Source of the DNA: an uncultured Bacteroidota bacterium
GTDB lineage: Bacteria; Bacteroidota; Ignavibacteria; UBA10030; UBA6906
Direction of reading: 5' to 3'
Assembly (NCBI GenBank): GCA_963700635.1
Contig: CAVOYH010000003.1
Location: forward strand, 288,001 to 352,000
Length of the DNA: 64,000 nt
In this document: positions 6,549 to 42,104 of the stretch, one piece after another
Numbering within the stretch: position 1 is the first letter of the stretch
Layout of the letters: every line of letters begins with the position of its first letter
The notes under the pieces: model-generated
Seen by the model: only the letters and a program-made list of their open reading frames with translations
Database searches by the model: none
Told to the model about the DNA's origin: nothing
Position numbers and translations under genes: made by a program

Positions 6549-6600
6549 GGTTTCTTCTCCTGCTTGGCGGGACCGTAGGATCTGCTAACGGGATGTCCGT

Positions 6601-6616
6601 TGCAATGGCCGTGCCA
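6601..6616 (-). promoter_or_regulatory. Sigma54 -24/-12 promoter
   Basis: Minus strand TGGCAC-GGCCA-TTGCA, a perfect consensus 52 nt upstream of the TPR gene. Confidence 0.8.
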
Positions 6617-6727
6617 CAACACCAGGACTCAAGTGTGTGGCTGCCATTAGCCAATTTGCCGGAAATGGGGGGAATATACAGTTTTTGTCCGGGGGGTGGT
6701 GAGGAATAGTCGCCACATGGAGAACAA

Positions 6728-25578: not shown

Positions 25579-26871
25579 TTACTTCATCAGCGTCATCCGC
25601 CTGGTGGCGGTAAGTCCGGCGTGGTCGATCCGGTAGAAATACACGCCGCTGGGAAGCCCCCCGGCGTTCCAGAGAACCTGATGCTGCCCGGCGGGAAGCA
25701 CCTCGTTCACCAGGGTGGCAACCTCTTCGCCGATCGTGTTATAGACCCGCAGCGTCACCTGACCGTCAGCTGGCAGCACAAAGGAGATACGTGTCGACGG
25801 ATTAAACGGATTCGGATAGTTCTGTCCCAGAGAGAACTGCGCGGGCATCGTCACTGGATCATCTTCCCGTACACTTGTCTCATCGGCGTTGTACGCAAAG
25901 ATCGGGCAGGCGGGACGGATCCCATGGTCGCGCAGACCACGCTCGACAAATCGCATCGTCGCAGCAAGCTCCTGCGCGTAGTCCGGTTCGACAAGGGCCA
26001 CTGCGTCAGACAGAAAACCGGCCACCTGATCCGCCGTGACGGTCACATCGAAGCCCGGGATCGGGACATTCGCTTCGATAAGCATCTCCGCCACCGGTGC
26101 TGTCTGTGCGGCCAGAATTGCGATTGTTTGGTTTTCTGGCCGTGAGAAAGCCAACCCGTACTGGGTGATGAGCTTCTTGTATTCCTTTTCTGTCCCGACA
26201 ATCAGAGCGCTCGCATCTGCGACCGGTATTCCGGCAAACGCAGCGAGGTCCTCCGCATAGGCCGCTGCCAGCAGGTGCGGGACCTCGGCCGGACGCGTCT
26301 GCGCCGCAAGCATCATGCGCAGTCCAACACCACGGTCCAGGTTCCTCCGGACCAGCAGATCCACTGCCGTCTCTGAGAGATCGTGTCCCATTTCCGGTGC
26401 GAGGAGACCCGCCACGTAATCTGCGTCCGGCGAGGGAAGACCGCCAGCGTGCAGAATGTCCACAAGGACTGGCATGAGCCGGGGGACGAGCGCCGCCCCT
26501 TTGGCGATGGCATATCCTTCGCCGGGAAACATGAACGAAGCATGATGTGCAGTGAAATCGGCGCCCCAGGTATCATTGTGTGTCAGAAACCCCAAGCCGA
26601 CGGACTTCAGACTCGGTCTCCAGGCCATCCGGTACACCGGCATGAAATTGTGATGTGTCGCGTCATACAGGAACTGTCCGTTCGCATCGAACATAGTGTT
26701 AAACACATCCGGTAGGACCGCTCCATACATTTCGTTCCTATTCAACGGTCCGAATTTCACGCCGAGTTCCCTGGCGAGGTAGACGTGGGTCGCATTCCCC
26801 CAGCTGAATGCACCCTGCACCGCCACGAGAATCAAGAGTGCAGCCACGAACAACTTCTTTGCAGTGTCCAT
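25579..26871 (-). CDS. T9SS cargo protein with Zn-dependent phospholipase C/S1-P1-like N-terminal domain
   Basis: Signal peptide then WGNATH, GAVLPD, TH...AD...H and GH...E; C-terminal QNYPNPFNP...GVYFYRI CTD. Confidence 0.75.
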   Translation of the reverse strand: MDTAKKLFVAALLILVAVQGAFSWGNATHVYLARELGVKFGPLNRNEMYGAVLPDVFNTMFDANGQFLYDATHHNFMPVYRMAWRPSLKSVGLGFLTHNDTWGADFTAHHASFMFPGEGYAIAKGAALVPRLMPVLVDILHAGGLPSPDADYVAGLLAPEMGHDLSETAVDLLVRRNLDRGVGLRMMLAAQTRPAEVPHLLAAAYAEDLAAFAGIPVADASALIVGTEKEYKKLITQYGLAFSRPENQTIAILAAQTAPVAEMLIEANVPIPGFDVTVTADQVAGFLSDAVALVEPDYAQELAATMRFVERGLRDHGIRPACPIFAYNADETSVREDDPVTMPAQFSLGQNYPNPFNPSTRISFVLPADGQVTLRVYNTIGEEVATLVNEVLPAGQHQVLWNAGGLPSGVYFYRIDHAGLTATRRMTLMK

Positions 26872-26912
26872 AAGATCCCTCCTTCGATGGATAGTGGTTG
26901 TTGGACAGCACA

Positions 26913-26966
26913 AAGATACTCGTGCACAGCGTCCTCATGTCAAAGAACTGTCACAGGAGTGTAACA
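26913..26966 (-). promoter_or_regulatory. Triple 11-bp-period direct repeat plus -10 (promoter of the T9SS gene)
   Basis: Minus strand GTTACA-N5-GTGACA-N5-TTGACA-19 nt-TATCTT. Confidence 0.65.
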
Positions 26967-27055: not shown

Positions 27056-27109
27056 GTGATCACCCCGTGACGCTTTCATGACATCCCTGAGCTCCCCGCA
27101 TCGTACATT
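27056..27109 (+). promoter_or_regulatory. Triple 11-bp-period direct repeat plus -10 (promoter of the UbiA operon)
   Basis: GTGATC(27056)-GTGACG(27067)-ATGACA(27078)-20 nt-TACATT(27104). Confidence 0.65.
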
Positions 27110-27134: not shown

Positions 27135-28100
27135 ATGCGATTCGCACAGGTATCGACGATCACAGGGGCTATGATTACAACGATGCGCCCCTATCTGCTT
27201 TTTCTCTCAGGCGTCACGGGCCTCGCAGGCATCGCGGCAGCGAAGGACGCTCCGGCCAGCACCGTGCTCCCGGTTTTCCTCGCGGCATTTCTCTCCTACG
27301 GTTTCGGGCAGGCATTGACCGACTGCTTTCAGACAGACACCGATGCGCTGTCAGCTCCCTACCGTCCGCTGGTCCGGGGGATCGTCAGTAAGCGAACCGT
27401 CTTCGTGACCAGCATTCTGGGTCTTGTATCCTGCTGTGCACTGTTTGCCATAAGCAACAGCGTCACACTCGTTCTCGGGACAGTTGCAGTGGGAGGTCTC
27501 GCGACATACACATGGTTCAAACGCCGCTGGTGGGGTGGACCCTGGTACAACGCATGGATCGTGTGCGTCCTGTTTCTGATGGGGTATCTCTCGGGTGAAC
27601 GCCAGGGAACCGCTGCGGTACCGGTCTCCCTGCTCCCTCTCGTGGTCACGGTCTTTTTCGGATATGCAAATTTCGTGCTGGCCGGCTACTTCAAAGACAC
27701 CAACGCAGACAGGCGAACCGGCTACAGGACGTTCCCGGTGGTCTTCGGACGCCGGCGCGCTTCGCGTCTCAGCGATTTCTTTGCCGTTGGAACGGTCGTT
27801 GCTCTCAGCGTTCATCTTGCAGACACATGGAGTACAGATTCGTCATTCTGGTCCGTAGCCCCGTCCGCCCTCTTTGCAGGCTGGGGGCTCGGGCACGCTA
27901 TCATCGGGCAATTCCTGCTTCATCACAATCGGGACGATCAGGATGCCCACAGACCGATCCGCCACGTGGTGCAGAGTTATGTGTTGATGCTGTCTGCTGC
28001 AGCCGTGAGTTTTCATCCCGCGTGGGCGGTGCCGCTCCTGGCATACTACGGTACCTTTCTCCTCGTTCTCACGCACAGAACGGAGCAGAGCCAGATATGA
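27135..28100 (+). CDS. UbiA-family prenyltransferase
   Basis: MRP, TDCFQTDTD...RPL..G, KDTNADRRTGYRTFPV; multiple TM helices; RBS GGAGG. Confidence 0.88.
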   Translation: MRFAQVSTITGAMITTMRPYLLFLSGVTGLAGIAAAKDAPASTVLPVFLAAFLSYGFGQALTDCFQTDTDALSAPYRPLVRGIVSKRTVFVTSILGLVSCCALFAISNSVTLVLGTVAVGGLATYTWFKRRWWGGPWYNAWIVCVLFLMGYLSGERQGTAAVPVSLLPLVVTVFFGYANFVLAGYFKDTNADRRTGYRTFPVVFGRRRASRLSDFFAVGTVVALSVHLADTWSTDSSFWSVAPSALFAGWGLGHAIIGQFLLHHNRDDQDAHRPIRHVVQSYVLMLSAAAVSFHPAWAVPLLAYYGTFLLVLTHRTEQSQI

Positions 28101-29023
28101 TCGCGTACGTCAATCCGCGGGCTGGCGCGGGGCGGGGCATGGCCCGGTGGAGCAGCATCGAATCCCGCATGAGCAGGACCTACAGAGATCTTCACATTGT
28201 GATGGCGGATGCCCCTGACTCCGCTGAGCGTGCAGTCCGCCGCGCACAGCAGTCACCCGGCCGTCGCATAGTGGCGGTAGGCGGCGATGGCACCGTGAAT
28301 GCCCTGGTAAACGCACTCCTCAACGGAGATCACAACGGAGGCCCCCCGTGTACTCTCGGCGCAATCGGGACCGGTTCGAGCAACGACTTCCACAAGCCGT
28401 TCACGGCGGAAGCAACGATCGGAGCTTTTCCTGCACGCCTGGATTTTGACCGGGCTTCGGCATATGATGCCGGCAGAGTGGAGTGGACCAATGCTGAGGT
28501 ACCAAGCGCACGATACTTCTTTCTGAACGCCAGCGCCGGTATTACTGCGGCCGGCAATGCCCGATTCAATGTCCCGGGACCACTCCTCGGTTTGCTCAAA
28601 CGCGCCCATGTTCCCAGCGCCATTCTCTTTACAGCGCTGACCACGCTTCTCGGATTTCGAAACGTTCATATCAGGCTCACCCTGGGGACGGAACACCTGT
28701 TGGATGTGCCCCTGACGAACCTGGGGATACTGAAGAGCCCCCATTTCTCAGGCGACCTTCGCTACGATACCGCGGGGGATTATGAAAACGGGAAGTTTGT
28801 TGTGGTTGCCTGCACCGGAATGAACACTCTTGAGCGAATCACCCTCTTCCGTGCATTGCGCAGGGGAAGTCTCGCAGGGGTGCAGCATGTCCGCCGCTGG
28901 TCGACATCTGCCGTCACCCTGGAGTCCCCCTGTCCGATCGGCATCGAGTTTGACGGTGAGACCGTTCTGGCGCAGAGTGCCCGGTTCACAGTCGTTCCAC
29001 ATGCACTCCAGGTATGCCCATGA
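28097..29023 (+). CDS. Diacylglycerol/sphingosine kinase family lipid kinase
   Basis: VNPRAG, GGDGTVN, GSSNDF, DGE; ATGA overlap with UbiA. Confidence 0.9.
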   Translation: MIAYVNPRAGAGRGMARWSSIESRMSRTYRDLHIVMADAPDSAERAVRRAQQSPGRRIVAVGGDGTVNALVNALLNGDHNGGPPCTLGAIGTGSSNDFHKPFTAEATIGAFPARLDFDRASAYDAGRVEWTNAEVPSARYFFLNASAGITAAGNARFNVPGPLLGLLKRAHVPSAILFTALTTLLGFRNVHIRLTLGTEHLLDVPLTNLGILKSPHFSGDLRYDTAGDYENGKFVVVACTGMNTLERITLFRALRRGSLAGVQHVRRWSTSAVTLESPCPIGIEFDGETVLAQSARFTVVPHALQVCP

Positions 29024-30075
29024 CATCCGCGATACGCGAACTCGCACTCATTACATCGCTCACACGCACGTTCACCAGGTCACCCCGGCAGATGAACCGC
29101 TTGCACGAGAGTGACGCTGAATTGCTGAGGCTCCCGTCGGGCGATCTTCTCGCAATCACGACCGATGCGATCAGTGAAGAACTTTCCAGCGGATTGTACA
29201 GGGATCCATTTCTGGCAGGATGGATGGTGGTGATGGCGAACATGAGCGACCTTGCCGCCGTGGGGGCAGAGCCGCTGGGGATTCTGCTTGCACAGACCCT
29301 CCCCCCTTCATTGTCAGGAACCGAGCTGGAGAGGTTGCAGGAAGGAATCCGGGGTGCATGTTCTGCATGCGGCACGTACGTGCTCGGTGGAGACACCAAT
29401 GAAGGGCCCGCGCTTCATCTGACGGGCACCGGGGTTGGCGTGCTTTCCGGCGACCATCCGCTCTCACGAATCGGATGTCGTGAGCACGACGTCCTGTGCG
29501 CCACGGGGCCGCTGGGGGGTGGAAATGCCTTCGCCGCAAATCAGTTCGCGCGCTCGGAAGTAGCATCCACGGGCTACGCTCCTGCCGCCCGCATCCGACA
29601 GGGCATGGCACTTCGCAGCCTTGCCTCGGCATGTATGGACACCAGTGACGGTCTTTTCGCAACGCTCGATCAGCTCTCGCGCTTGAACGCCGTAGGCTTC
29701 GACCTGGACGACGATTGGGCAGATGGTCTTGATGTGGCGGCCCATGATGCCTGTGCGGATCTGGATATCCCGCTCTGGGCATTTCTTGCAGCTCCCCATG
29801 GGGAATTCGAACTGGTGTTCTCGATATCCCTGGAGCGTCTTCCCGTGTGCAAGGAACTCTTCGGGTCGTACGGATGGCGGCTCCTTCAGCTCGGCCGGGT
29901 ACGAGCCAGCTCCGGTATTCATGTTCCGGGCATCGGGACATTTACCCCTCCCCTGCTTGCGGCTATCAGAAACGCTTCGCCGCTCGGAAGAGGCGGCTTG
30001 ACGGCGTATCTCCAGTTGTTGCAACGCATCGGGAGGCTGGCGGAAAGGTTCGACAGCTTTGTGACATCTCCCTGA
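29020..30075 (+). CDS. Divergent ThiL/PurM-superfamily ATP-dependent kinase
   Basis: TTD, NMSDLAAVGA, GGDT, DTSDGL, GEFEL; ATGA overlap. Confidence 0.8.
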   Translation: MTSAIRELALITSLTRTFTRSPRQMNRLHESDAELLRLPSGDLLAITTDAISEELSSGLYRDPFLAGWMVVMANMSDLAAVGAEPLGILLAQTLPPSLSGTELERLQEGIRGACSACGTYVLGGDTNEGPALHLTGTGVGVLSGDHPLSRIGCREHDVLCATGPLGGGNAFAANQFARSEVASTGYAPAARIRQGMALRSLASACMDTSDGLFATLDQLSRLNAVGFDLDDDWADGLDVAAHDACADLDIPLWAFLAAPHGEFELVFSISLERLPVCKELFGSYGWRLLQLGRVRASSGIHVPGIGTFTPPLLAAIRNASPLGRGGLTAYLQLLQRIGRLAERFDSFVTSP

Positions 30076-30103
30076 CAAACGACGGGACGTCTGACGCTAC
30101 ATT
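30050..30103 (+). promoter_or_regulatory. Internal promoter with the same triple repeat
   Basis: TCGACA(30050)-GTGACA(30061)-CTGACA(30072)-20 nt-TACATT(30098). Confidence 0.65.
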
Positions 30104-30136
30104 GCAGACAGAGAAACCGAAGGAGGAGAAACAATC

Positions 30137-31456
30137 ATGAAACCTGATGTTGAGTACCGTGGTGGAGAGGACTTCGATCTGAAGAAGATGCTGATGCGCG
30201 GACGACATATGCGACTCGCAGAGCGTACGGCCCTCTTCGCAGAGTTCATGCGTGACCTGGGGACTCACAAAGAAATGCTCTGTCTCCGGTGCATCACATC
30301 GGCTGCCGACCGGACCGTGATGGTCCAGGATCCGGAAACCGGGGCAACTCGTCCCATGCTGATGTTCGGGTCCAACAACTACCTGGGTCTTGCTACCCAT
30401 CCCACTCTCAGGACGCACGCCTGTGAAGCATTGCAGAGTTATGGCGCGGGCGTTGGAGGCCCTCCGCTGCTCAATGGATACACCGCTCTTCATCGTTCAC
30501 TGGAACACCGGCTGGCCGCCTTGAAAGGAACGGACGATGCACTGATCTTTTCCAGCGGCTATGCCGCAAATGTCGGCCTGGTATCGGCCTTGATGAGCCG
30601 GAATGACATGGTATTCTATGACGCATACAGCCACGCATCATTCTCTGACGGCATGCATCTTGCGGGAGTGACGGCCCATCGGTTCGAGCACAATGACCTT
30701 GCTGATCTGCGCAGACTGCTTGCATCGCGGAAGAGATCCACCACCGGCGATACATATGTGGCGGTCGAAGGGGTGTACTCCATGGACGGCGACGTAGCCC
30801 CGCTGAGGGAACTCCTCACACTGTGTACAGCCCACGGGGCAATACTGATCGTCGACGATGCTCATGGAACCGGCGTCCTGGGAGCGCACGGTGGCGGAAC
30901 TGCGGAGCATTGTGGTGTCGAAGGACAGATCCCCATCACGATGGGAACGTTCAGCAAGACCTTTGCGGTCACGGGAGGATTCGTCGCGGCCTCGAAACCG
31001 GTGATCGACTATCTCCGCTTCTTCGCGCGCTCCTATATGTTTTCGGCCTCCCTCTCGCCAGTTTCCATCGCCACCGTACTTGCCGGACTTGACGTACTCC
31101 AGGAAGAGCCGGAGAGGATGTGGGCTCTCCGGCAGAACGTTGCATACGCCGCCGCCGGACTCCGCCGTCTGGGGTTCGACGTCCAGCCGGAGGCTGCCAT
31201 CATTCCCCTTCTGGTACCGCCGGGAATGGACATCCGGCGCGCGGCCCGGTTGTTTCACGAGGATGGAATCTTCGTGAATTCTATAGAATACCCCGCAGTC
31301 CCGGTGGACCAGCAACGATTCCGGATCAGCATCATGGCCACACACACGGGAAACGACATTGACCGGCTCGTGGCCAGCGTCCGTACGGTGTGGGCGGAGT
31401 GCAGGACATCAGGCGAGCAGGGGTGCCATGCGGAACCGCACGCATACGCAGCCTGA
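30137..31456 (+). CDS. Alpha-oxoamine synthase, serine-palmitoyltransferase-like (PLP)
   Basis: SNNYLGL, HAS, EGVYSMDGD, DDAHG, GTFSKTF; RBS AGGAGGAG. Confidence 0.88.
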   Translation: MKPDVEYRGGEDFDLKKMLMRGRHMRLAERTALFAEFMRDLGTHKEMLCLRCITSAADRTVMVQDPETGATRPMLMFGSNNYLGLATHPTLRTHACEALQSYGAGVGGPPLLNGYTALHRSLEHRLAALKGTDDALIFSSGYAANVGLVSALMSRNDMVFYDAYSHASFSDGMHLAGVTAHRFEHNDLADLRRLLASRKRSTTGDTYVAVEGVYSMDGDVAPLRELLTLCTAHGAILIVDDAHGTGVLGAHGGGTAEHCGVEGQIPITMGTFSKTFAVTGGFVAASKPVIDYLRFFARSYMFSASLSPVSIATVLAGLDVLQEEPERMWALRQNVAYAAAGLRRLGFDVQPEAAIIPLLVPPGMDIRRAARLFHEDGIFVNSIEYPAVPVDQQRFRISIMATHTGNDIDRLVASVRTVWAECRTSGEQGCHAEPHAYAA

Positions 31457-32822
31457 CCGGAAGAAAATACTCATCATCGTTCTGTTCCAGAACCTGGGCG
31501 ATTCGAACCCGTACTACGCCCGGAGCCCGGCGCCCCCGCTTCCGGGGTTACTTCTGGCCGCCCTGACGCCACCAATTGTCGATGTGGAAGTGCTTCACGA
31601 AATGGTGCGGCCGATCAACTATGAAACGGACGCCGGGTTTGTTGCGCTGAGTTTCATGGACTATCTCTCTCCGCATGCATACGACGTAGCAGCCCGTTTT
31701 CGGAAAGCCGGTAAAACCGTCATCGGAGGAGGAAAATTCGCCTCTACCTTTCCCGACGAAGTCCAGCCGCATTTTGACAGTATTCTCGTCGGTGAGGCAC
31801 AGGACATGTGGCCCATGATGGTGAGGGACCTGGTGGACGGCGCACTGAAGCCCCGGTATGAAGCATCGCTGAACGGGTCGCTGGCGGGTATGCCCTCACC
31901 CCGGTATGACCTTGCCGAAAGCACATACGTCACGCCGGTCGTCACGGAAGCGACACGCGGATGCCCGCATCCATGCACATACTGTCAGCTGAATATCCGG
32001 CGCACGCCGCACAGGACCAGACCGGTCGGAGACGTGGTGCGCGACCTGCGGAACACGTCGGCTCTCCCCTGGCACAAACGCAAGATGGCCATGGTGCTCG
32101 ATAACAACCTGGGAGGCGACCTGATCTATGCGAAGGAGCTCCTTGCGGCGATCGCTGATCTGAAGCTGTGGGGCCTCGGCGTACAATTCAGCATCGAAGC
32201 GCTACGCGACGACGCCTTTGTGGAGGTGCTTGCCGCAGCCCGATGCCGCATGGCATTCATCGGTATGGAATCCCTCGACCCACGCAGCCTTGCAGATGTG
32301 AAAAAGAAGCAGAACAACGTCTCGGAATACCGGGACGCATTCGACAAGCTCCACCGCCACGGGATCCTCACCTTCACCGGGTTGATGTTCGCGCTGGATG
32401 AGGACACCCCGGCCTACTATCGTGAACTCCCCCGCCTCCTTGAGGAAGTGGGCACCACGGTGATACTCCCGTCGATCGCGATCCCGATCTATGGGACGCC
32501 GCTGTACCAGAAAGTAGTTGCCGAAGGCCGGTTGCTTGACACCGACCTTTCTCACTACGAGGGCGACCATCTGGTGTTCCGGCACAAGTACATGTCGCCG
32601 GAGCAGATCCGTGAAGCCTATCGCACCGTTACCATGGGGTTTTACCGGTGGGGCACCATCCTGAAGCGGTGGATCAGATTCATGGGAAAGCAGTCGAAAC
32701 AGGAATCCCTCGGCGGGTTTCTTCTGAAGCTGTCTGTTCTGAGTTTCATATACGTGAAGCTGTCCGTCTTCCAGCGCCACCACGCCCGGATCCGCATCAA
32801 CGGCGGTGCGATGGCATCGTAA
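31428..32822 (+). CDS. B12-binding-domain radical SAM enzyme
   Basis: RGCPHPCTYC; N-terminal GG..AS...GEA cobalamin-type domain; IGMES; PIYGTPLY. Confidence 0.88.
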   Translation: MRNRTHTQPDRKKILIIVLFQNLGDSNPYYARSPAPPLPGLLLAALTPPIVDVEVLHEMVRPINYETDAGFVALSFMDYLSPHAYDVAARFRKAGKTVIGGGKFASTFPDEVQPHFDSILVGEAQDMWPMMVRDLVDGALKPRYEASLNGSLAGMPSPRYDLAESTYVTPVVTEATRGCPHPCTYCQLNIRRTPHRTRPVGDVVRDLRNTSALPWHKRKMAMVLDNNLGGDLIYAKELLAAIADLKLWGLGVQFSIEALRDDAFVEVLAAARCRMAFIGMESLDPRSLADVKKKQNNVSEYRDAFDKLHRHGILTFTGLMFALDEDTPAYYRELPRLLEEVGTTVILPSIAIPIYGTPLYQKVVAEGRLLDTDLSHYEGDHLVFRHKYMSPEQIREAYRTVTMGFYRWGTILKRWIRFMGKQSKQESLGGFLLKLSVLSFIYVKLSVFQRHHARIRINGGAMAS

Positions 32823-32842
32823 CGCGCACCCGGCATCTCCGG

Positions 32843-33559
32843 TCAGCGCTTCCTGCCTCGTGCGGATGACACCTTCCCTTCCCGGGAGAATTTGTATCCT
32901 GCTGTGTGCACGGTGAGGATATGCTGCGGTGTGGCGGCGTTGATTTCCAGCTTCTTGCGAAGAGAGAGAATATAGTTATCGACCGTTCTTGTCGTCGGAA
33001 ATACCTCGTACCCCCAGACCCCGTTGAGGAGCATGTCCCGCGTGACGACTTCCCCTTCGTGCAGAATAAGGAATTTGAGGACACTGTATTCGCGCACGGA
33101 CAGCTGCACTGGCACCCCGCCGCGCACTGCCTCCTGCTTGCGAAAGTCAACGGTCACGGAGGCAAACGCGTAGTCATCGAGTTCCGTCCGGAGTTCATGG
33201 CTCCTCCGGAACCGGGCATGAATGCGTGCCAGGAGTTCCCGTGTGCTGAACGGCTTGGTCATATAGTCATCCGCGCCCATCTCCAGACCGAGCACTTTGT
33301 CCATTTCCTGACTCTTGCTCGTCAGCATGAGGATTGGCGTTTGAACGCCGCTCTCCCGGAGTTGTTTGCACACTTCTTCGCCATTGATGTCGGGAAGACC
33401 GAGATCGAGGAGAATGAGATCCACATTTTCCTTCCGGCCCAGCGTCAACCCCCGCGAACCGGTCGGCGCGGTGAGGACCCGAAAGTGTTCTGCGGTGAGC
33501 ACCTCCTCCAGACCCTGGATGATGGCGGGATCGTCTTCAATAACGAGGATGGTTTTCAT
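32843..33559 (-). CDS. OmpR/PhoB-family response regulator
   Basis: IEDD, LLDLGLP, GADDYMTKPF, RTVDNYILSLRKKLE, GYKF. Confidence 0.95.
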   Translation of the reverse strand: MKTILVIEDDPAIIQGLEEVLTAEHFRVLTAPTGSRGLTLGRKENVDLILLDLGLPDINGEEVCKQLRESGVQTPILMLTSKSQEMDKVLGLEMGADDYMTKPFSTRELLARIHARFRRSHELRTELDDYAFASVTVDFRKQEAVRGGVPVQLSVREYSVLKFLILHEGEVVTRDMLLNGVWGYEVFPTTRTVDNYILSLRKKLEINAATPQHILTVHTAGYKFSREGKVSSARGRKR

Positions 33560-36038
33560 TGGACCTCTTCCGTGTGTTGGGAGCCGGAGCAGGAAACACC
33601 AATGTGATTTCGCTTCCTTTTCCCACGGCGCTTTCCACCTCAACCCGGCCGCCGTGAGCATCCATGATGTGCTTGACTATCGAGAGGCCGATGCCGACCC
33701 CCTGGAGACGCCGGGGAAGCGTGGGATCCCGGTAGAATTTTTCGAAGACATGCGGACGGGCCTCGGGGCTGATTCCTGCCCCGCGATCGCGGACGCTGCA
33801 GATGATGGCATCCCGCCGTTTGGCGGCAACAATCGTAATCATTTTTTCCTCACCCCCATACTTCATTGCGTTGGTGAGAAGATTCATGACGGCCTCGCCG
33901 ACGGCATCCGGGTCTGCGTGGATCGTGAGACGGGAACGGTTGCGTGGAAAGCGGCGCTCCACCCGAAATCCCTCTTTGCGCAGCTGGTATTCCAGGAGCC
34001 GGAGGACGGATTTGAGTGTCCGGAGCAGGTCCATGTCGCGAAAGGAGTACTGCACAGCCCCGTCTTCGATGCGTGCGGAGTCGAGAATCGTGGAGACCAT
34101 CCGGTTCAGACGATCCGCTTCACCCTCCACGACGGTCAGAAAGCCACGCCCCTTCCTGTCGCTCGCGGCGACATGCCTCTTGAGAAGCTCTGTGTACATT
34201 TTGATAGACGTGAGCGGCGTCCGCAGATCGTGTGACACGTAGGAAACAAAATCCGATTTCAGCGCGTTGAGGGTGAGCAATCTGTCGGCTTCAGCTTCCT
34301 TGACAATCAGCTGTCGCTGCAACCGGAGGCGTTCTATCTCCAGACCCGCCTGTGACGCAACGCCACGGAGAAGGTCAATGTCCTCGCTGCTGAACCGGTG
34401 TCCTGATTCCTTGGGCCCGAGCAGGATGTAGCCGAGGATCCGTTCCTGTTTCGAGTGGACCGGGACGGCGATCACAAGATCCCACATTGCCGCGAGGCGG
34501 GAGTCTGCCGTAACACAGGCCAGACCCTGTTCGATGGCGGCGTCAACGGCGATCGGGAGAGGGCGGCCAAATGTCTTCTCGTGGAGATATGCCATCAATT
34601 CCGAAACAGCTTCGACCGGTTTTCCATGCCACGCCAGGACCGTCGGTGTACCATCGTTCTTCGTGTCGACCACAAATGCAAGCAGGCTGGTCGGGAGAAG
34701 CCGTGCCAGCCGATCGATGAGTTTCCTCGCGAGAAGGGTTTCCGAGGGCGCGCGCCGGATCTCTTCCAGTAGCTCACCTGCCGCCTTCCGATAATCGTAC
34801 CGTACCCGGAAATAGCGCATATCGACGTGATGCTGCACTGTGCGCCGGAGGGGCTGGAAAACGAGGGCAATGAGAACAGCGCTGCCGGTCGAGATCACGA
34901 GCGAGATTTCGAACGTGAATGTTGTCACCATGGCAGCCACGCCGAGGACGAGCGCAAGATACACCCCCACAATGATCGCCGTCACCGTCGCATAGACGAC
35001 GCTCCGGTTGAGCAGAAGATCGATATCAAGAATGTGGTATCGCACGATGGAGATACCGAATGAGAGCGGAATCGCCCCCGAGAAGAGCAGCATGACCTCC
35101 TCGGGCACCAGCCCGTACGAGAGAATGATCGAGGGGATGACCCAGAGAACAACGAACGGAACGAAGCCGACAAACAGTCCCCAGACGACCCAGCGCAGCC
35201 GTCTGCGTTCCGGCTCTTCGCCCGCCGTCAGGTATGCGTGGCGCACCGAGAGGAGTCCACCGACCACCAGGGCAACAAGAAACCAGCGTGTTGCCGTGAA
35301 TGCCTGGAGATGAACATGGAAATCCGTCACCAGGCCAGTATCGGCGGCGCGAATGAACGTCACGCCGTTCGCCACCGAGAGAACGGCAGCGAGCCCATAC
35401 AGGCTCGCAAACATCCAGACGTGCTTCGGTGTTCGATCGCGAGGGAACAGCGATGCGAATCGGAGAAACCACACGGGGACAAACGCATACATGACTGAGA
35501 ATACGACCCGGAGCCCGATACCGACCTCAAGCGGAATCGTGCCGTACTGACCCCATGTTGTCGAGAGCATGACGGCGGTGCCGACGGCGCCCAGGTGAAA
35601 CACGCGCGCAGCCCGGTCTCCGGGTCGACGGAGGAACACAACGATTCCAACGCCGTAGAACAACATGCTGACGAGAATGACGATGACGAGATACAGGGAT
35701 CCATAGTATGGTACGAGGGAGATCGTAAGGGTGCGGAGTGTGCCGTCTCTCTCGACGACACACGGAACGAGCGTTCCGACAGTGTGGCGATCAAGGAGAA
35801 ACTCGATATCCTCCACGTTTCGCACCTGCTGACCTGCGATGCTGACCATCCGGTCTCCGGCGAGGAACTTCGAGGGAGGTGAGGCGACGTGAGTGCAGAC
35901 GATGCGCTCGTCAACTTCTGAGTAGCTGATCCCGAGGCCGGGCTTGGCAGCGATGCGGAGAATACCAACACAGCAGAGGAGGAGCACCCCTCCGTGGAGG
36001 AGCGCGGCAATCGGGTGCGCGCGAATCGAGGAGAACAT
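33537..36038 (-). CDS. Membrane sensor histidine kinase (PDZ-like, multi-TM, GAF-like, HisKA, HATPase)
   Basis: GDRMVSIAGQQV PDZ-like; SHDLRTPLTSI; NLLTNAMKY, DRGAG, GIGL; start uncertain. Confidence 0.92.
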   Translation of the reverse strand: MFSSIRAHPIAALLHGGVLLLCCVGILRIAAKPGLGISYSEVDERIVCTHVASPPSKFLAGDRMVSIAGQQVRNVEDIEFLLDRHTVGTLVPCVVERDGTLRTLTISLVPYYGSLYLVIVILVSMLFYGVGIVVFLRRPGDRAARVFHLGAVGTAVMLSTTWGQYGTIPLEVGIGLRVVFSVMYAFVPVWFLRFASLFPRDRTPKHVWMFASLYGLAAVLSVANGVTFIRAADTGLVTDFHVHLQAFTATRWFLVALVVGGLLSVRHAYLTAGEEPERRRLRWVVWGLFVGFVPFVVLWVIPSIILSYGLVPEEVMLLFSGAIPLSFGISIVRYHILDIDLLLNRSVVYATVTAIIVGVYLALVLGVAAMVTTFTFEISLVISTGSAVLIALVFQPLRRTVQHHVDMRYFRVRYDYRKAAGELLEEIRRAPSETLLARKLIDRLARLLPTSLLAFVVDTKNDGTPTVLAWHGKPVEAVSELMAYLHEKTFGRPLPIAVDAAIEQGLACVTADSRLAAMWDLVIAVPVHSKQERILGYILLGPKESGHRFSSEDIDLLRGVASQAGLEIERLRLQRQLIVKEAEADRLLTLNALKSDFVSYVSHDLRTPLTSIKMYTELLKRHVAASDRKGRGFLTVVEGEADRLNRMVSTILDSARIEDGAVQYSFRDMDLLRTLKSVLRLLEYQLRKEGFRVERRFPRNRSRLTIHADPDAVGEAVMNLLTNAMKYGGEEKMITIVAAKRRDAIICSVRDRGAGISPEARPHVFEKFYRDPTLPRRLQGVGIGLSIVKHIMDAHGGRVEVESAVGKGSEITLVFPAPAPNTRKRSNENHPRY

Positions 36039-36096
36039 GAGGCCTTCCGTGATGCCGTGCGCAATATACGGATTCTCCTCAAACTCCGCCAGAGCA

Positions 36097-36125
36097 TTGC
36101 TTTTCCTGTGCGATTTCGCCATACT
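36097..36125 (+). promoter_or_regulatory. Sigma70-type promoter upstream of the smpB remnant
   Basis: TTGCTT-17 nt-CATACT. Confidence 0.5.
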
Positions 36126-36149: not shown

Positions 36150-36364
36150 ATGGCACACCAGGCAGAGGCGGACGAAAAAGTTGTTGCAACAAATCGTAAG
36201 GCACGCCTGAGTATGCTGTCCTTGAGGCTCTCGAAACCGGAATCGTCCTGACCGGCACGGAAGTGAAATCGCTCCGCCAGGGAAACGCGCATATGACCGG
36301 AGAGAAGATGAACAAGTCGCTGGATAACTACATCGGGATCAGTGCTCCGAACGCCGCCAGATAG
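36150..36364 (+). pseudogene. smpB: smpB 5' remnant fused to a TyrRS KMSKS-loop fragment
   Basis: MAHQAEADEKVVATNRKAR, then a frameshift near 36207, then EYAVLEALETGIVLTGTEVKSLRQGNA, then GEKMNKSLDNYIGIS. Confidence 0.8.
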
Positions 36365-36446
36365 ACCCCACAGAAACCACGGGAACTCCCATATCCGGCA
36401 ACTCGTTATACCCGATACACCTCCACCCCCATTCCTGAGGCAGACC

Positions 36447-37679
36447 ATGCACAATCTTGTGCGACAATCCGCGGTTCTCTTCGTCCTTCTTGCAAGTTCC
36501 ACCCTGCACCAGGCACCAGCCGGCCAGCCCAACCCGGATTCCTCCCTCTCCCTTCGAGCCCACACTCTCGCCCAACGCTTGACCATCGTGGATACCCACA
36601 TCGACCTGCCTTCGCTGCTGCTCGACAAATGGCATGATGTGTCGGTCAGAAAACCCGGTGACAACTTTGACTATGTCAGGGCAAAGGAGGGGGGACTCAC
36701 TGTTCCGTTTATGTCCATCTACATCCCCTCACGCCTGGAAGGAACAGGAAAGGCAAAAGAGCGGGCAGAACAGATGATTGCGGCAGTGCGCAAGATGGTC
36801 ACAACATGGCCGGATAAGTTTGACCTCGTCTACTCGCCCGTAGAGATCGAGCGGAAGAAACACTCAGGAAAAATTCTCCTCGCCATGGGGATGGAAAACG
36901 GCGCGCCTCTCCAGGGAAACCTCGCAAATCTTGCGTACTTCCATTCGCTCGGAATCCGCTACATCACCCTGGCCCATGCACAATGGAATCACCTCTGTGA
37001 TGCATCCTACGATCCGGAGAGACACTGGAATGGCCTGAGCCCGTTTGGCAAACAGGTGATCGGGGAGATGAACCGCCTTGGCATCATGGTGGATGTCTCC
37101 CACCTCACAGACAGCGCCGCATTCCAGGCAATCCGACTTTCACGTGCCCCGGTTATTGCCTCACACTCTTCATGCCGGTCCTTTACCCCGGACTTCGAAC
37201 GGAATATGAGCGATGAACTGATCGTCGCTCTCGCAAAGAAGGGGGGCGTTATCCAGATTAACTTCGGATCGGAATTTATAGACGACTCAGTCCGGACCGC
37301 GTATGTGAGGCACGGCAACGCTGTCGCTGATTCCATCCGGCGCAGGGGATTAAATCCACAATCTGCGGAAGCACGGAAGTTTAAACGGGAATACGCCAGA
37401 AAGAATCCGCAACCCTATGCAACGATCGACGAGGTTGCCGCGCATATTGACCATGTCCGGCACCTGGTAGGCGTTGATTTCGTCGGGCTCGGGTCTGACT
37501 TCGAAGGTGTTGGCAATTCGCTTCCTGAAGGACTTAAAGACGTGTCCGGATATCCGAACCTGATCGAGGCATTACTCCGGAGGGGGTATGATGAACGGGA
37601 TATCGCCAAGGTGTGCGGCGGGAACCTGCTCAGAGTCTGGTCTGCTGTGGAACAGGTGGCACACGAGGAACACCAATAA
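36447..37679 (+). CDS. Exported membrane dipeptidase (M19)
   Basis: DTHID, GMEN, MVDVSH, IASHS, GLGSDFEG. Confidence 0.93.
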   Translation: MHNLVRQSAVLFVLLASSTLHQAPAGQPNPDSSLSLRAHTLAQRLTIVDTHIDLPSLLLDKWHDVSVRKPGDNFDYVRAKEGGLTVPFMSIYIPSRLEGTGKAKERAEQMIAAVRKMVTTWPDKFDLVYSPVEIERKKHSGKILLAMGMENGAPLQGNLANLAYFHSLGIRYITLAHAQWNHLCDASYDPERHWNGLSPFGKQVIGEMNRLGIMVDVSHLTDSAAFQAIRLSRAPVIASHSSCRSFTPDFERNMSDELIVALAKKGGVIQINFGSEFIDDSVRTAYVRHGNAVADSIRRRGLNPQSAEARKFKREYARKNPQPYATIDEVAAHIDHVRHLVGVDFVGLGSDFEGVGNSLPEGLKDVSGYPNLIEALLRRGYDERDIAKVCGGNLLRVWSAVEQVAHEEHQ

Positions 37680-38590: not shown

Positions 38591-38858
38591 GCTTCCTCAC
38601 CTCACCCTTAAACCCTGAGTAGTAATCCAGAAGTTGTGAACCTCCCACGGCACCAATCATCCCGCTACACTTACTACACCGTGACAATCAGAATTCCGTG
38701 TGCGGACAATGGGTATCTGCGTCTTGACTTTCTCAGCCAACGGTGCAATATTCTTATATAGAGAAGAACCCGAGATTGTCCTTTTTCTCGAAACCTCGTT
38801 CACTCCTGCCAACAGAGAGGGGTTCTCTGTTTATCCTACTTTCGAAGGAGGGCACACC

Positions 38859-40013
38859 GTGTTCACGCGCAAACTCCACCTCATTTTTCTCGGATTGCTT
38901 GTCTGCTCTCCGATGTACGCTGCGGATAATACCTACCAGGTGTACGTTACCCAGACCCTGGCTGGAAGCTACTACGATGTGAGCGTATGGATCGGTTCGG
39001 CAAGTCCGGAATTTGTCCTGGCGACCGCCGGGTTCAAACTCAGCTACAATCCCGAGGCTCTGGGATGCCCCACTAAACTCCCGTCTGACGACGGGCCCTG
39101 GGATCAGCAGACCGATGCCGATTATGCCAACATGACGCTTATTCTGCACGACGGCGCCGCCGTTGAACTCCACACCCGATTCCTGGGGGGTGTCGACTTC
39201 ACAGGAACACCCGTCCCGTCAGCCACGACGACCCATGTGGGCACTATCCGATTTTATATCCGCGACCCGTCTCTGCCGGCACTTCTGAACTGGAGCCAGC
39301 CCTTTGTCTTCCGGCTCAACTCACCCGGAACACAACCGCCGCTGGAAATATTGTACACCGCAGGCGGTGATTTTGTTCCGCCCGACGACCAGCCCCTTCC
39401 GATTACCCTGGCATCATTCGTTGGCGCGCCGGTTGCGGGAGGCCCGGGTGTGGAACTCTCCTGGCGTACATTGAGCGAGATAAACAACTACGGCTTTACG
39501 ATCCAGCGGCGTGTGGCGGAAATGGGAGAGTTTGTGGCACTCCCCGGGGGGTTTGTCCCCGGCGCCGGCACGACCGCTGAACCACGTTCCTATTCCTTCA
39601 TGGACCGGACTCTTGAACGGCCGGGACGGTATGAGTACCGTTTGATGCAGGAGGATCTGAACGGCAAGTTCTGGCTCTCTGAGGTTATCACCGTCAATGT
39701 CATCGTCACAGCACTCGAGGACATCGAAACGCCGATCGATCCGAGCCTGGTGCGGAATTATCCGAATCCGTTTAACCCGGAAACAACAGTGCAGTACGGA
39801 GTTGCTTCGCCATCCTGGGTGAGCGTGGAAGTCTTTACGATTCTGGGGCAGAAAGTCCGTACACTGGTCAACACCCGGCTGGACAGAGGCCGGTATGCAG
39901 TGACCTGGGATGGTAATGACGATCACGGACAGCAGGTGAACAGCGGCACGTATCTTTGCCGGGTGGCTTCTGAGGGTCAGGTCGGAACAGCAAGAATGGT
40001 TATGGTCCGGTAG
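38859..40013 (+). CDS. T9SS cargo protein (cohesin-like N-terminus, LPITL-Ig domain, FlgD-like CTD)
   Basis: Signal peptide; PLPITLASF..W.T.SE.NN.GF; NYPNPFNP..WDG; RBS GAAGGAGG before GTG. Confidence 0.85.
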   Translation: MFTRKLHLIFLGLLVCSPMYAADNTYQVYVTQTLAGSYYDVSVWIGSASPEFVLATAGFKLSYNPEALGCPTKLPSDDGPWDQQTDADYANMTLILHDGAAVELHTRFLGGVDFTGTPVPSATTTHVGTIRFYIRDPSLPALLNWSQPFVFRLNSPGTQPPLEILYTAGGDFVPPDDQPLPITLASFVGAPVAGGPGVELSWRTLSEINNYGFTIQRRVAEMGEFVALPGGFVPGAGTTAEPRSYSFMDRTLERPGRYEYRLMQEDLNGKFWLSEVITVNVIVTALEDIETPIDPSLVRNYPNPFNPETTVQYGVASPSWVSVEVFTILGQKVRTLVNTRLDRGRYAVTWDGNDDHGQQVNSGTYLCRVASEGQVGTARMVMVR

Positions 40014-41961
40014 GCCTGAATCTCCCCACCCATCCTCCACCGTTCGCAAGACGTATGCGGAAGTGAGAATCCTGTGTAACGGTGGAGGTTGCTGATTTGT
40101 AATCAATCGCCCGCTGATCTGCGTTCACGCCGTCCTGAAAAGCCGTGAGCGTGTATGATTTCCCCCCCTCAAGAAATGCACAGTCGATGTCCAGACTGCG
40201 GCCATCCCAGCCCGTGATAGCTCCGACATACCAATCCTCCCCCTTTCTACGGGCCACGGCCACATACTCTCCCACTTTTGCATGCACCACACGGAGGTCA
40301 TCCCACGTCGTGGGAATTTCCGCCATAAACCGCATACATTCATCCTCCCGGTAGTAATCGGGAGGAGCATCCGGCAACATGCGCATGGGGCTCTCGAGCA
40401 CCACACACAGCGCCATGGTATGCGCCCTGGTCCCCTGTCCCATGGGCCGGTTTACAATCATCCGGAACTCATGCTGCTGGGCATTGCGCATTGTCCCGGG
40501 AAGGTAGTCCGCCGGACCGGCTACCATGCGGATAAAAGGGAGGATGGTATGATATTCGGGCGAATCAGTCATATTCACCGCGTTCTGCTCAAACTCAATG
40601 AGCCCTTCCCGGGTAATAATATGGGGGAATGTCCGCCGCAATCCGTCCGGTTTGTAGGCCCCGTGGAGCACGACAAGCATCTTCCGCCTTGCAGTTTCTT
40701 CCGCGAGACGGTAGTAGAACTTCACCATTTCCTGATCGTCCCGGTTCATGAAGTCCACCTTGATGCCGGCGACGTTCCATCGTGAGAATTGTTCGAATGC
40801 AGCATCCCACTGACGTTCCAGAGTCGACCAGACTGCCCAGAGAAGCATCTGTACTCGTTTGCTCTTCGCATACGCAAGAACTTCTTCCATATCCAGCGCG
40901 GGGTTGATGCTCAAAAGATCGTCTTCCTTTGTCCAGCCACAATCCAGAAGGACATACTCCAGACTGTAGTGTGCGGCAAAATCGATCAGATATTTGGCGG
41001 TTGCGGTGTTTACATCACCCGGAAAATCCACACCAAAGAGGTTACGCCGCGCCCACCAGTCCAACGTCACGATACCGGGCTGTATCCAAGACGCCCCGGT
41101 AAGCCGGGAGGGTTCTCCCAGCAGGTAGACAAGCGAGTTGGTCAGAAGGTCTGCATCGTTTCTTGCTGCTATAAAAACCCGCCAGGGATACATCCTCGTT
41201 CCTCCGGTCCGGGCAATCTCAGGAGCATGTTTTGTCACCTTTCCCCGCGTATAGTGATCTGCGCCATCCAGCAGCTCCAGCGGATATCCGGGAAATGTGG
41301 AGCGCAGCACCCCTCCGCCCTCGTGTCTGATCCAGAGACCCGGATAGTCTTCCACGCTGGCTTCCGTCACCACGATGCGCCGTCCGGAACCCAGGCTGAT
41401 AAGGAACGGCAGGTTGCAGAGACTGTCCTGTGCCATGGCCGGAAGAGCGGTCGTCCGGTAGGGGTATTCATAGGATGACCAGAATTCCGGGTTGGCCTGA
41501 TACGTTATGATTGCGCCTTCGGGAAAGGTCAACGCCAGAGATTCCCGGTCAATCGTAATATCACCCCCGATGGAGGTGACAAACCGGTACGCAACTCCTT
41601 CATCATACGCACGCAGGACAATGCTGTACCGACCCCGGAACACCACTTTCACTTCATTGAACCTGTCGCGCAGGAGCGCGGCTTTTTCCCGGACAAGGGG
41701 ATGTTCAACGGTATCCTGAGACCGGCGGTGGGTAGCCTCGACAATGGGAACCACCCCGAACGGTTTTTCCCCCCGCATCGACATGCCGATTGATGAGAGA
41801 GAAAACAATGGTGTTGTACCATCGTTTACGCGCAGGGAGAGTGTCTGGCTGACGTTCAACGTCGCGGTGATACGCCCGTCGGGCGAAAAGACGGTGATTT
41901 CTTCAGCAGCCCCAGTGCACAGAAGACCGGAAGCCATGATCAGAAGCATCGTGTGTTTCAT
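40000..41961 (-). CDS. Glycoside hydrolase family 97
   Basis: SPDG, RAYDEGVAYRF, YPWR, GIKVDFM, TREG, GPADY.PG, WDD, ARR, GGG. Confidence 0.93.
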   Translation of the reverse strand: MKHTMLLIMASGLLCTGAAEEITVFSPDGRITATLNVSQTLSLRVNDGTTPLFSLSSIGMSMRGEKPFGVVPIVEATHRRSQDTVEHPLVREKAALLRDRFNEVKVVFRGRYSIVLRAYDEGVAYRFVTSIGGDITIDRESLALTFPEGAIITYQANPEFWSSYEYPYRTTALPAMAQDSLCNLPFLISLGSGRRIVVTEASVEDYPGLWIRHEGGGVLRSTFPGYPLELLDGADHYTRGKVTKHAPEIARTGGTRMYPWRVFIAARNDADLLTNSLVYLLGEPSRLTGASWIQPGIVTLDWWARRNLFGVDFPGDVNTATAKYLIDFAAHYSLEYVLLDCGWTKEDDLLSINPALDMEEVLAYAKSKRVQMLLWAVWSTLERQWDAAFEQFSRWNVAGIKVDFMNRDDQEMVKFYYRLAEETARRKMLVVLHGAYKPDGLRRTFPHIITREGLIEFEQNAVNMTDSPEYHTILPFIRMVAGPADYLPGTMRNAQQHEFRMIVNRPMGQGTRAHTMALCVVLESPMRMLPDAPPDYYREDECMRFMAEIPTTWDDLRVVHAKVGEYVAVARRKGEDWYVGAITGWDGRSLDIDCAFLEGGKSYTLTAFQDGVNADQRAIDYKSATSTVTQDSHFRIRLANGGGWVGRFRPTGP

Positions 41962-42104
41962 AATGGGACTCCCGGTTGAGGGACGTTGTGGGTGTGACAA
42001 ATGTACAGAACTCGCGTGCAAAAGGAAAATTGAGTCCACCAGGTGCATTTTGTTTTTCCATTTCCCATCTTGTCGTATCCTATCTCCCATCCGGAGCTCC
42101 ACCC

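Follow-up and report, generated by a model that had tools for sequence, protein, structure and literature searches.

A conserved bacterial gene cluster of a UbiA transferase, two kinases and a radical SAM enzyme that probably makes an undescribed membrane lipid

We describe a compact cluster of biosynthetic genes in an uncultured Bacteroidota bacterium (GTDB lineage Ignavibacteria; UBA10030; UBA6906), identified in a stretch of 64,000 nucleotides (hereafter the window; assembly GCA_963700635.1, contig CAVOYH010000003.1, positions 288,001 to 352,000). The cluster occupies window positions 27135-32822 on the forward strand, where five closely spaced, co-directional open reading frames (ORFs) encode a UbiA-superfamily membrane transferase, a DAGK-like lipid kinase, a ThiL-like kinase, an alpha-oxoamine synthase (AOS) and a radical S-adenosylmethionine (SAM) enzyme. 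The invariant core of this system consists of the UbiA transferase and the DAGK-like and ThiL-like kinases, whose genes are translationally coupled, almost always accompanied by the class-B-like radical SAM enzyme. Judging from the families to which these proteins belong, the cluster probably makes an undescribed membrane lipid. The enzyme families are all known; the pathway and its product appear to be new, and there is a real chance that the product represents a new lipid class.

The packing of the five genes is operon-like. The UbiA gene (27135..28100, +, with an alternative upstream ATG at 27078; PF01040) shares a 4-nt overlap (ATGA) with the gene for the DAGK/YegS/sphingosine-kinase-family lipid kinase (28097..29023, +; DAGK_cat and YegS_C), the ATG of the latter lying over the TGA of the former. 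A 10-nt overlap leads into the gene for the ThiL-like kinase of the AIRS/PurM superfamily (29014..30075, +; AIRS, 74.2 bits), and a 61-nt gap separates this from the gene for the pyridoxal phosphate-dependent AOS, which resembles serine palmitoyltransferase (SPT) (30137..31456, +; Aminotran_1_2, 189.4 bits). The AOS gene in turn overlaps the radical SAM gene (31428..32822, +; class-B-like architecture, Radical_SAM and DUF4070) by 29 nt, provided that the ATG at 31428 is the start. An earlier examination of the letters alone, which we call the sequence-only reading, had described five mostly overlapping genes; the coordinates and junctions bear this out, and Pfam confirmed each of the families that it had named. 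A promoter/terminator scan found 0 sigma-70-like promoters and no other signal of use; Bacteroidota promoters are of a different type.

Conservation of this grouping extends well beyond one genome. Using the ThiL-like protein as the marker, a search through 185,579 species, each represented by one genome, recovered relatives in at least 292 species-level genomes, and the loci of the best 80 of the 292, all from metagenome-assembled genomes, were compared. Their labels cover Ignavibacteria/Bacteroidota, Gemmatimonadota, Aminicenantes, Calditrichaceae, Zixibacteria, Verrucomicrobiota, Lewinellaceae and a few others. Forty-three of the 80 loci are well flanked (at least 4.5 kb left and at least 5 kb right of the marker), and in these the UbiA gene is present in 43/43, the DAGK-like gene in 42/43, the radical SAM gene in 40/43 and the AOS gene in 32/43; a short-chain dehydrogenase/reductase (SDR) is found in 21/43, a response regulator in 28/43 and a histidine kinase in 26/43. 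Among all loci with at least 2.2 kb on the left, the corresponding figures are 66/66 for UbiA and 65/66 for the DAGK-like gene. Within a sample of the phylum, a ThiL-like match at E<=1e-20 occurs in only seven of 401 genomes, from which it follows that ordinary ThiL proteins fall short of this score. The order UbiA-DAGK-ThiL-like-AOS is kept in all six of the other carriers in this sample (tblastn), and the radical SAM gene comes next in three of the six. The gene grouping is thus real: its order recurs in every one of these six genomes and across the 80 loci, far beyond chance. The earlier statement that it matches no recognised pathway also holds, in the sense that we find a conserved functional module that fits no curated family. 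Among 8000 metagenome proteins scored, 1047 are related to the ThiL-like protein at E<=1e-10, and where their sources name them, the name is 'thiamine-phosphate kinase'.

Outside the invariant core, the AOS, the SDR and the two-component system recur often as accessories, and other accessories include a FadD-like acyl ligase, MacB/DevC-type exporters and Omp85 proteins. No AOS gene was seen in the 16 Gemmatimonadota-labelled or the five Aminicenantes-labelled loci, some of which lie on short contigs. Gene families were counted in 84 stretches, over ORFs that were 100 aa or longer and were selected by summed similarity; the counts leave out L017-L019, which duplicate L023, L050 and L055, and are too low for genes that are short, or split, on short contigs. 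In 39 of the 84 stretches there is a classical SDR, usually immediately before UbiA, and the Aminicenantes have two copies of it. A 141-aa membrane protein with no Pfam match (F9) occurs in 10 and Omp85-type proteins in eight, one of them fused to an endonuclease/exonuclease/phosphatase domain. The FadD-like acyl ligase belongs to the Verrucomicrobiota cluster. A variant group (L020, L022, L046, L070 and L101) is without the radical SAM gene and carries instead a MacB/DevC-like ABC exporter, a 345-aa GNAT protein and a member of DUF3419, the family of the betaine-lipid enzyme BtaA; in L046 this variant set is present and the AOS is absent.

The Omp85 fusion (L029, 13961-16096, -) joins a beta-barrel to an endonuclease/exonuclease/phosphatase domain, which belongs to the fold family of sphingomyelinases. 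Omp85 proteins recur in seven other loci, beside the cluster or beside a homologous two-component system (L114). In L089, an Aminicenantes version of the cluster is followed by genes for a COQ7-like di-iron protein (16910-17452, +) and an unannotated 251-aa protein.

A search for longer UbiA relatives turned up four fusion proteins. Two SDR-UbiA fusions (P0122 and P0123) are 47-50% identical to the window UbiA, and their SDR parts are 35-41% identical to the cluster SDR. No other evidence from sequence points as strongly as these fusions to a membrane intermediate on which both reductase and transferase would act. In addition there is one F9-UbiA fusion (P0121) and a 726-aa protein (P0124) made up of truncated UbiA, DAGK and AIRS parts, which is possibly an assembly artefact. 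A candidate ThiL-AOS fusion in L022 (a 692-aa open frame) was rejected: it is an upstream open frame in GC-rich DNA, out of frame with the DAGK gene. No fused ThiL-like forms were found among the longer proteins searched, a negative that counts as weak evidence.

The ThiL-like kinase is, from its structural matches and conserved residues, a protein of AIRS/PurM-type fold with a conserved acidic metal/ATP site, and is predicted to convert a phosphate monoester to a diphosphate in an ATP-dependent reaction. Its best PDB matches are ThiL structures (92 bits, aligned over residues 33-271), and D34, D51, D64, D79, D127, D209 and D212 are invariant in 14 orthologues. It therefore shares with ThiL the fold over nearly its full length, conserved aspartates and a likely chemistry, yet it scores only 148.4 bits on the thiL model TIGR01379 against a cut-off of 184.15, and for its cluster orthologues in nine other carriers the scores are 128-173 bits. 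Six of ten other carriers (G224 and G401-G405) encode, besides the cluster copy, a canonical ThiL that passes the cut-off (224-294 bits); the cluster copy is the only ThiL-like gene in the four Ignavibacteria-class carriers. In the window genome (4.2 Mb, six contigs, 6.7% contamination) the cluster gene is the best match to the ThiL model and HypE is the next. This HypE, with a C-terminal PRIC (C3:482420-483661), is the only other notable match, and its presence suggests that the organism has a [NiFe] hydrogenase.

The vitamin genes of the organism set its ThiL-like kinase further apart from thiamine metabolism. Neither ThiE (PF02581) nor ThiC (PF01964) was found in the 97%-complete window genome, and a thiamine pyrophosphokinase (TPK) is present (86.8 bits, C3:1191601), so that the organism is apparently a thiamine auxotroph that forms thiamine pyrophosphate directly from thiamine. 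It appears auxotrophic for biotin as well: the best BioB match reaches 41 bits against 225 and the best BioA match 235.8 against 405, and BioD has no match at all. Since none of these three was found above cut-off, the product of a BioF would enter no biotin pathway. The ThiL-like gene does not encode the thiamine kinase, and the cluster is independent of thiamine and biotin metabolism; the remark that no bio or thi genes lie nearby can be widened, for ThiC, ThiE, BioA, BioB and BioD, to the genome.

The AOS carries the lysine motif GTFSK (TMGTFSKTF). On NCBIfam models it scores 374.3 bits for bioF (TIGR00858; cut-off 426.45), 359.9 for SPT-CFB (NF047600; 640), 329 for Kbl (460), 258.6 for ALA synthase (338.55) and 212.9 for the CqsA type (NF005526; 428). 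Its best PDB match is the SPT of Sphingobacterium (3a2b/8guh, 282.3 bits), ahead of the BioF/Kbl entry 7poa (241 bits), Kbl (220), Sphingomonas SPT (217), BioF (212) and cysteate acyltransferase (204); CqsA, at 132 bits, comes behind more than 40 other AOS entries. The proposal, made from the GTFSK motif, that SPT is a closer likeness than BioF or Kbl is supported by these structures, the closest being a Bacteroidota SPT, and its score below the bioF cut-off together with the missing bio pathway shows that it is not BioF. The window genome encodes three AOS paralogues, namely the cluster gene, a Kbl (516 bits against 460) with the motif GTLGK, and an SPT-CFB-like protein (476 bits) that also reads GTFSK. 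In a quick maximum-likelihood tree of 54 rows, restricted on the cluster side to AOS ORFs of 380-480 aa, a single clade (SH-aLRT 94) unites 45 of the 46 cluster AOS, L079 being the exception, and a separate clade (SH-aLRT 98) holds the SPT-like paralogues of the carrier genomes. Phylogeny thus confirms the cluster AOS as a distinct group and at the same time places it outside the SPT clade. The Verrucomicrobiota sequence L079 falls on the SPT/Kbl side of the tree and is encoded beside a FadD-like ligase and an SDR, which argues that an AOS was here recruited independently to the trio of UbiA and two kinases.

Carriers of the cluster also encode SPT-like genes elsewhere. In the window genome the SPT-CFB-like gene lies on contig C2 at ~126,000-131,000 (L109 7377-11924), flanked on one side by the gene for a divergent epimerase/dehydratase-family reductase and on the other by genes for a 372-aa GNAT protein and IlvE; this arrangement resembles the Spt, bCerS and CerR ceramide locus of bacteria. 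The names Spt, CerR and bCerS occur together in one preprint (bioRxiv 10.1101/2023.05.01.538943). No NCBIfam model names the GNAT or the epimerase-family protein of this locus, and neither a bCerS-type GNAT nor a CerR-type reductase was found among the cluster genes. The GNAT of the variant clusters shows no similarity to the GNAT beside the SPT-like gene, and for this reason no bCerS link could be drawn. A MacB-type ABC transporter, a TonB receptor and a polyprenyl synthase also neighbour the C2 locus. The cluster SDR has NCBIfam matches that include 3-ketodihydrosphingosine reductase (125-142 bits against a cut-off of 400), and all five of the AOS-less carrier genomes tested contain an SPT-CFB-like gene elsewhere (521-553 bits).

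Canonical UbiA enzymes carry the motifs NDxxDxxxD and DxxxD. The UbiA protein of the cluster matches PF01040 with 98.3 bits against a gathering threshold of 34.2 and is hydrophobic throughout, with two segments exceeding a strict hydropathy cut-off. Its best NCBIfam models are those for archaeal prenyltransferases and digeranylgeranylglyceryl phosphate (DGGGP) synthase (62-67 bits against cut-offs of 269-353), the DGGGP synthase models NF009521 and NF009522 giving 62-66 bits against 296-353, below equivalog score. The best PDB matches are DGGGP synthase (6m31, 31.9 bits) and chlorophyll a synthase (9sau, 31 bits), so that, of the characterised proteins, these two O-prenyltransferases are its closest relatives by similarity. 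Motif 1 is conserved in 64 orthologues as GQALTDCFQxDxD (TDCFQTDTD in the window), with Q replacing the second Asp of NDxxDxxxD, whereas DGGGP synthase reads NDIFDIEID in the PDB alignment; motif 2, KDxxADRxxG, is canonical and conserved.

The DAGK-like kinase matches PF00781 (DAGK_cat) with 65.3 bits against 23.6 and has a YegS_C domain and the GGDG motif (VGGDGTVNA). It scores 62.5 bits on TIGR00147 (YegS/Rv2252/BmrU; cut-off 118.65), and its PDB matches reach only 21-23 bits. The DAGK family includes the bacterial ceramide kinase CpgB of Caulobacter and a dihydrosphingosine kinase of P. gingivalis (bioRxiv 10.1101/2023.05.01.538943).

The radical SAM enzyme is the most conserved protein of the cluster, at 54-75% identity to the window protein across phyla, with the outlying L082 sequence (30-32%) as the sole exception. 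It consists of an N-terminal Rossmann-like region, a core with the CxxxCxxC motif (C179/C183/C186, invariant in 32 orthologues), DUF4070 and a C-terminal hydrophobic helix (430-448), and scores 52.6 bits for Radical_SAM (PF04055), 21.8 bits for DUF4070 and 52 bits on the best NCBIfam model (cut-off 251). The C-terminal helix suggests an association with the membrane. The family profile matches AprD4 as well as the class-B structures TsrM, CysS, TokK and OxsB, and also 9ccb, titled only 'radical SAM core domain-containing protein'. The B12-binding domain PF02310 was not detected in the window protein even at E<=5, and in two orthologues it stays short of its cut-off of 32.1 bits (30.1 and 25.5 bits), so that the label 'B12 radical SAM', given from sequence alone, is at most tentative for the window protein.

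Taken together, these families point to a lipid pathway in which one lipid alcohol with a sphingoid-type backbone would be phosphorylated twice and joined by UbiA through an ether-type link, a proposal to which we give about an even chance. Support for it comes from the operon-like packing, the synteny, the fusion proteins, the non-vitamin context, the lipid- and sphingoid-related kin and context of the enzymes, and the likely membrane association of the radical SAM protein. More tentatively, and with the balance tilted somewhat towards doubt, we propose a specific order of AOS, reductase, DAGK-like kinase, UbiA, ThiL-like kinase and radical SAM enzyme. The AOS would join an amino acid to an acyl thioester to give a 3-keto long-chain base, which a reductase (the cluster SDR where present) would convert to a sphinganine-type amino alcohol; in AOS-less clusters, the long-chain base would come from an SPT-like gene encoded elsewhere. 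The DAGK-like kinase would then form the 1-phosphate, a structural mimic of the archaeal intermediate geranylgeranylglyceryl phosphate (GGGP), and the DGGGPS/chlorophyll-synthase-like UbiA would transfer an isoprenoid chain from the cellular prenyl-diphosphate pool to the free hydroxyl, forming an ether. Finally, the ThiL-like kinase would add a second phosphate to yield a lipid diphosphate head group, and the radical SAM enzyme would alter an unactivated carbon of a chain. This order is favoured because each enzyme keeps the usual chemistry of its family on one backbone, with no need for an unexplained substrate from outside.

The product of such a pathway may define a hybrid lipid class that combines a sphingoid backbone, an ether-linked isoprenoid and a pyrophosphate head group, made through archaeal-type UbiA chemistry and a ThiL-derived kinase. 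As a complete description this is unlikely, although far from negligible; were it correct, the ThiL-derived kinase would be the first identified enzyme to convert a lipid phosphate to a lipid diphosphate. A bolder variant would have UbiA take a sphingoid diphosphate as a non-prenyl alkyl donor. The idea of a twice-phosphorylated, prenylated or ether-linked, radical-modified sphingoid lipid, first put forward in the sequence-only reading, is still the best account of the cluster, with the qualification that the AOS, which it counted as one of the five genes, stands outside the invariant core.

Several observations count against this account. The chemical steps are all drawn from family membership, and all five biosynthetic proteins fall below every NCBIfam curated cut-off. 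We know of no precedent for a terminal lipid diphosphate made by a ThiL-type enzyme. The altered motif 1 of UbiA means that its diphosphate substrate may not be an ordinary prenyl diphosphate. For the reduction step, no orthologue of the cluster SDR was found in the window genome, which contains only generic SDR matches of at most 35% identity. A sphingoid backbone is not proven for the core, since 11 of the 43 well-flanked loci lack an AOS and 22 lack the SDR. SPT-CFB-like genes are also common irrespective of the cluster: of 151 Gemmatimonadota sampled, 86 have one (two unpublished genomes, G462 and G502, are counted in), as do 141 of the 151 genomes from the class to which Aminicenantes belongs. 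Against these backgrounds of 57% and 93%, their presence in 3/3 and 6/6 carriers says little. Furthermore, a kinase expected to form diphosphates is strictly linked to a UbiA expected to use them, and the supply of a donor would explain this at least as naturally.

That alternative, in which the two kinases turn a free lipid alcohol into a diphosphate donor for UbiA, is the strongest of those we considered, and we judge it unlikely but deserving of serious attention. It would be a counterpart, without homology, of phytol salvage in plants and cyanobacteria. The alcohol could be an isoprenoid, with the product of the AOS and SDR as acceptor; it could also be a sphingoid base, transferred from the sphingoid 1-diphosphate with help from the neighbouring amine. 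The genes for UbiA and the two kinases overlap and co-occur almost without exception, ThiL-type chemistry yields a diphosphate, the very group bound by the Asp-rich motifs of UbiA enzymes, and a diphosphate substrate out of the ordinary could account for the altered motif 1 (TDxxQxDxD). The SDR-UbiA fusions would likewise fit an SDR creating an acceptor hydroxyl that UbiA uses directly. However, we know of no DAGK-family enzyme that phosphorylates prenols, the clusters encode no source of free isoprenoid alcohol, and the conserved neighbours include no polyprenyl synthase or prenol-forming gene. A saturated sphingoid 1-diphosphate, for its part, is not an allylic or anomeric electrophile of the kind that known UbiA enzymes use.

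A second alternative concerns the genes that converge on the five-gene set from the reverse strand. These encode an OmpR/PhoB-type response regulator (32843..33559, -, in an ORF open to 33661; Response_reg 103.7 bits, Trans_reg_C 82.4 bits), whose likely start is M35 of the ORF (MKTILVIEDD), and a sensor histidine kinase of 861 aa (33537..36122, -; PDZ_2, GAF_2, HisKA and HATPase_c). The kinase has one transmembrane (TM) helix, a periplasmic PDZ domain and some 8-9 further TM helices (hydropathy places TM segments at 37-55 and 145-422), followed by the GAF, HisKA and HATPase domains; its PrsK-like match reaches 122.6 bits against a cut-off of 300. In L020 the same PDZ-TM-GAF sensor module is joined to a SpoIIE phosphatase output instead of a kinase. 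Locus L021 encodes, between the histidine kinase and the OmpR-type regulator, a receiver fused to an adenylate/guanylate cyclase domain (5718-6641, +). The two-component system had been called dedicated to the cluster, which its distribution hardly supports: the kinase is adjacent in only 26 of the 43 well-flanked loci, albeit across phylum labels, and its sensor family (residues 1-600) is found in 39 of the 401 phylum genomes, comprising five of the seven carriers and 34 of the 394 without the ThiL-like marker. At five non-carrier loci the kinase-regulator pair lies beside an Omp85 gene or proteins with the C-terminal tail of the type IX secretion system (T9SS), with no cluster gene nearby. 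The system is better described as envelope-associated and often linked to the cluster than as dedicated to it.

Nonetheless, the layouts of cqsA-cqsS and lqsA-lqsS likewise combine an AOS with a multi-TM kinase and a response regulator, and it had been suggested that the AOS makes a CqsA/LqsA-like autoinducer. The AOS would then produce an amino- or hydroxy-ketone resembling CAI-1 or LAI-1, or a lipid derivative of one, which the multi-TM kinase would sense in a feedback loop. The shared layout, the recurrence of the kinase across phylum labels and the reuse of its sensor beside the cluster in L020 speak for this model. In contrast to CqsA/CqsS and LqsA/LqsS, however, the cluster AOS is far from CqsA by both profile and structure, and the kinase has PDZ and GAF domains, belongs to a family found well outside the cluster, accompanies four of the 11 AOS-less well-flanked loci and is missing from 10 of the 32 that contain an AOS. 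The model also leaves the invariant UbiA and the two kinases without a role, those known systems having no counterparts of them. We therefore regard it as improbable.

Even less probable, in our judgement, is a tetrapyrrole- or quinone-related tailoring. Here the AOS would be ALAS-like, the UbiA would resemble chlorophyll synthase and the radical SAM enzyme BchE, and together they would esterify or modify a tetrapyrrole with prenyl diphosphate supplied by the kinases, while the target of the Aminicenantes version with its COQ7-like gene would be a prenylated aromatic compound. Beyond that gene, this proposal can draw on weak scores for ChlG/BchG (43-45 bits), for BchE (40.9 bits) and for ALA synthase, and on chlorophyll a synthase as the second-best PDB match of UbiA. 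SPT, BioF and Kbl nevertheless outscore ALAS, DGGGP synthase outscores ChlG, the conserved neighbours include no other tetrapyrrole or quinone gene, and the carriers, by their organism labels, are not known phototrophs. Least credible of all is a housekeeping coincidence that set the organism's own thiL and bioF (or kbl) beside unrelated prenyltransferase, lipid kinase and radical SAM genes: the best NCBIfam names, the pipeline label given to the orthologues and the four carriers without another ThiL-like gene would suit it, but both scores lie below cut-off, the vitamin pathways are lacking while TPK is present, a separate Kbl is encoded elsewhere, canonical ThiL coexists in six of ten other carriers, and synteny is kept across phyla.

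The surroundings of the cluster in the window can be described briefly. Proteins with a T9SS C-terminal sorting domain are encoded on both sides (25579-26913, -, and 38700-40013, +), and a homologue of the upstream one adjoins the cluster in 17 of the 84 stretches. Further downstream lie an M19 membrane dipeptidase (36342-37679, +), a GH97 glycosidase (40000-42117, -) and a GxGYxYP-family protein (41976-44180, +); across the loci compared, no conserved link of these three to the cluster was found.

The cluster has points of contact with several known systems. Like bacterial sphingolipid synthesis, which uses Spt, bCerS, CerR and DAGK-family kinases, the cluster combines an SPT-like AOS, a reductase and a DAGK-family kinase; it differs in the AOS clade, which stands apart, and in the absence of a gene of bCerS or CerR type, and neither a UbiA transferase nor a ThiL-like kinase nor a radical SAM enzyme is known from any sphingolipid pathway. 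With archaeal ether lipids, where DGGGP synthase acts on GGGP, the proposed logic is shared in that a phosphorylated lipid alcohol with a free hydroxyl would be O-prenylated and its phosphate then activated. Archaea activate the head group through CDP-archaeol synthase, that is, a CTP transferase acting on a glycerol phosphate backbone, whereas the cluster would use a sphingoid base and an ATP-dependent ThiL-type kinase, and its UbiA matches DGGGP synthase with only 32-67 bits and has an altered motif 1. Phytol salvage in plants and cyanobacteria offers a parallel in two serial kinases, the phytol kinase VTE5 and the phytyl-phosphate kinase VTE6, which turn a lipid alcohol into a diphosphate that UbiA-family transferases then handle. 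These kinase families are, however, unrelated to DAGK_cat and AIRS/ThiL, and the cluster adds an AOS, an SDR and a radical SAM enzyme.

Full-text searches of the literature found no description of this gene combination. Term searches of PMC11214058, PMC11334938, bioRxiv 10.1101/2023.05.01.538943 and PMC12419801, supplements lying outside their scope, likewise found none, and the main text of a paper on diverse bacterial sphingolipids is without the words 'kinase', 'prenyl' and 'radical SAM' (PMC11334938). In the abstract and outline of a review, the enzymes listed are only Tes, Mss, Gms, Grs, Gmm, Cds, HpnH/J/P/R, Jaw5 and the ladderane enzymes (PMC13459092).

If our proposal is correct, an unrecognised lipid pathway exists in at least 292 species-level genomes, from sediment, soil and bioreactor lineages with few or no cultured members. 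It would join bacterial sphingolipid chemistry to the UbiA ether chemistry typical of archaeal lipids, with consequences for the 'lipid divide' and for the question of where orphan environmental lipids used as biomarkers come from. Furthermore, a large family that annotation pipelines now mislabel as thiamine-phosphate kinase would gain a function, and with it a candidate enzyme type for the conversion of lipid phosphates to lipid diphosphates. With only four to six genes, the cluster is small enough for these predictions to be directly testable by heterologous expression and lipidomics.

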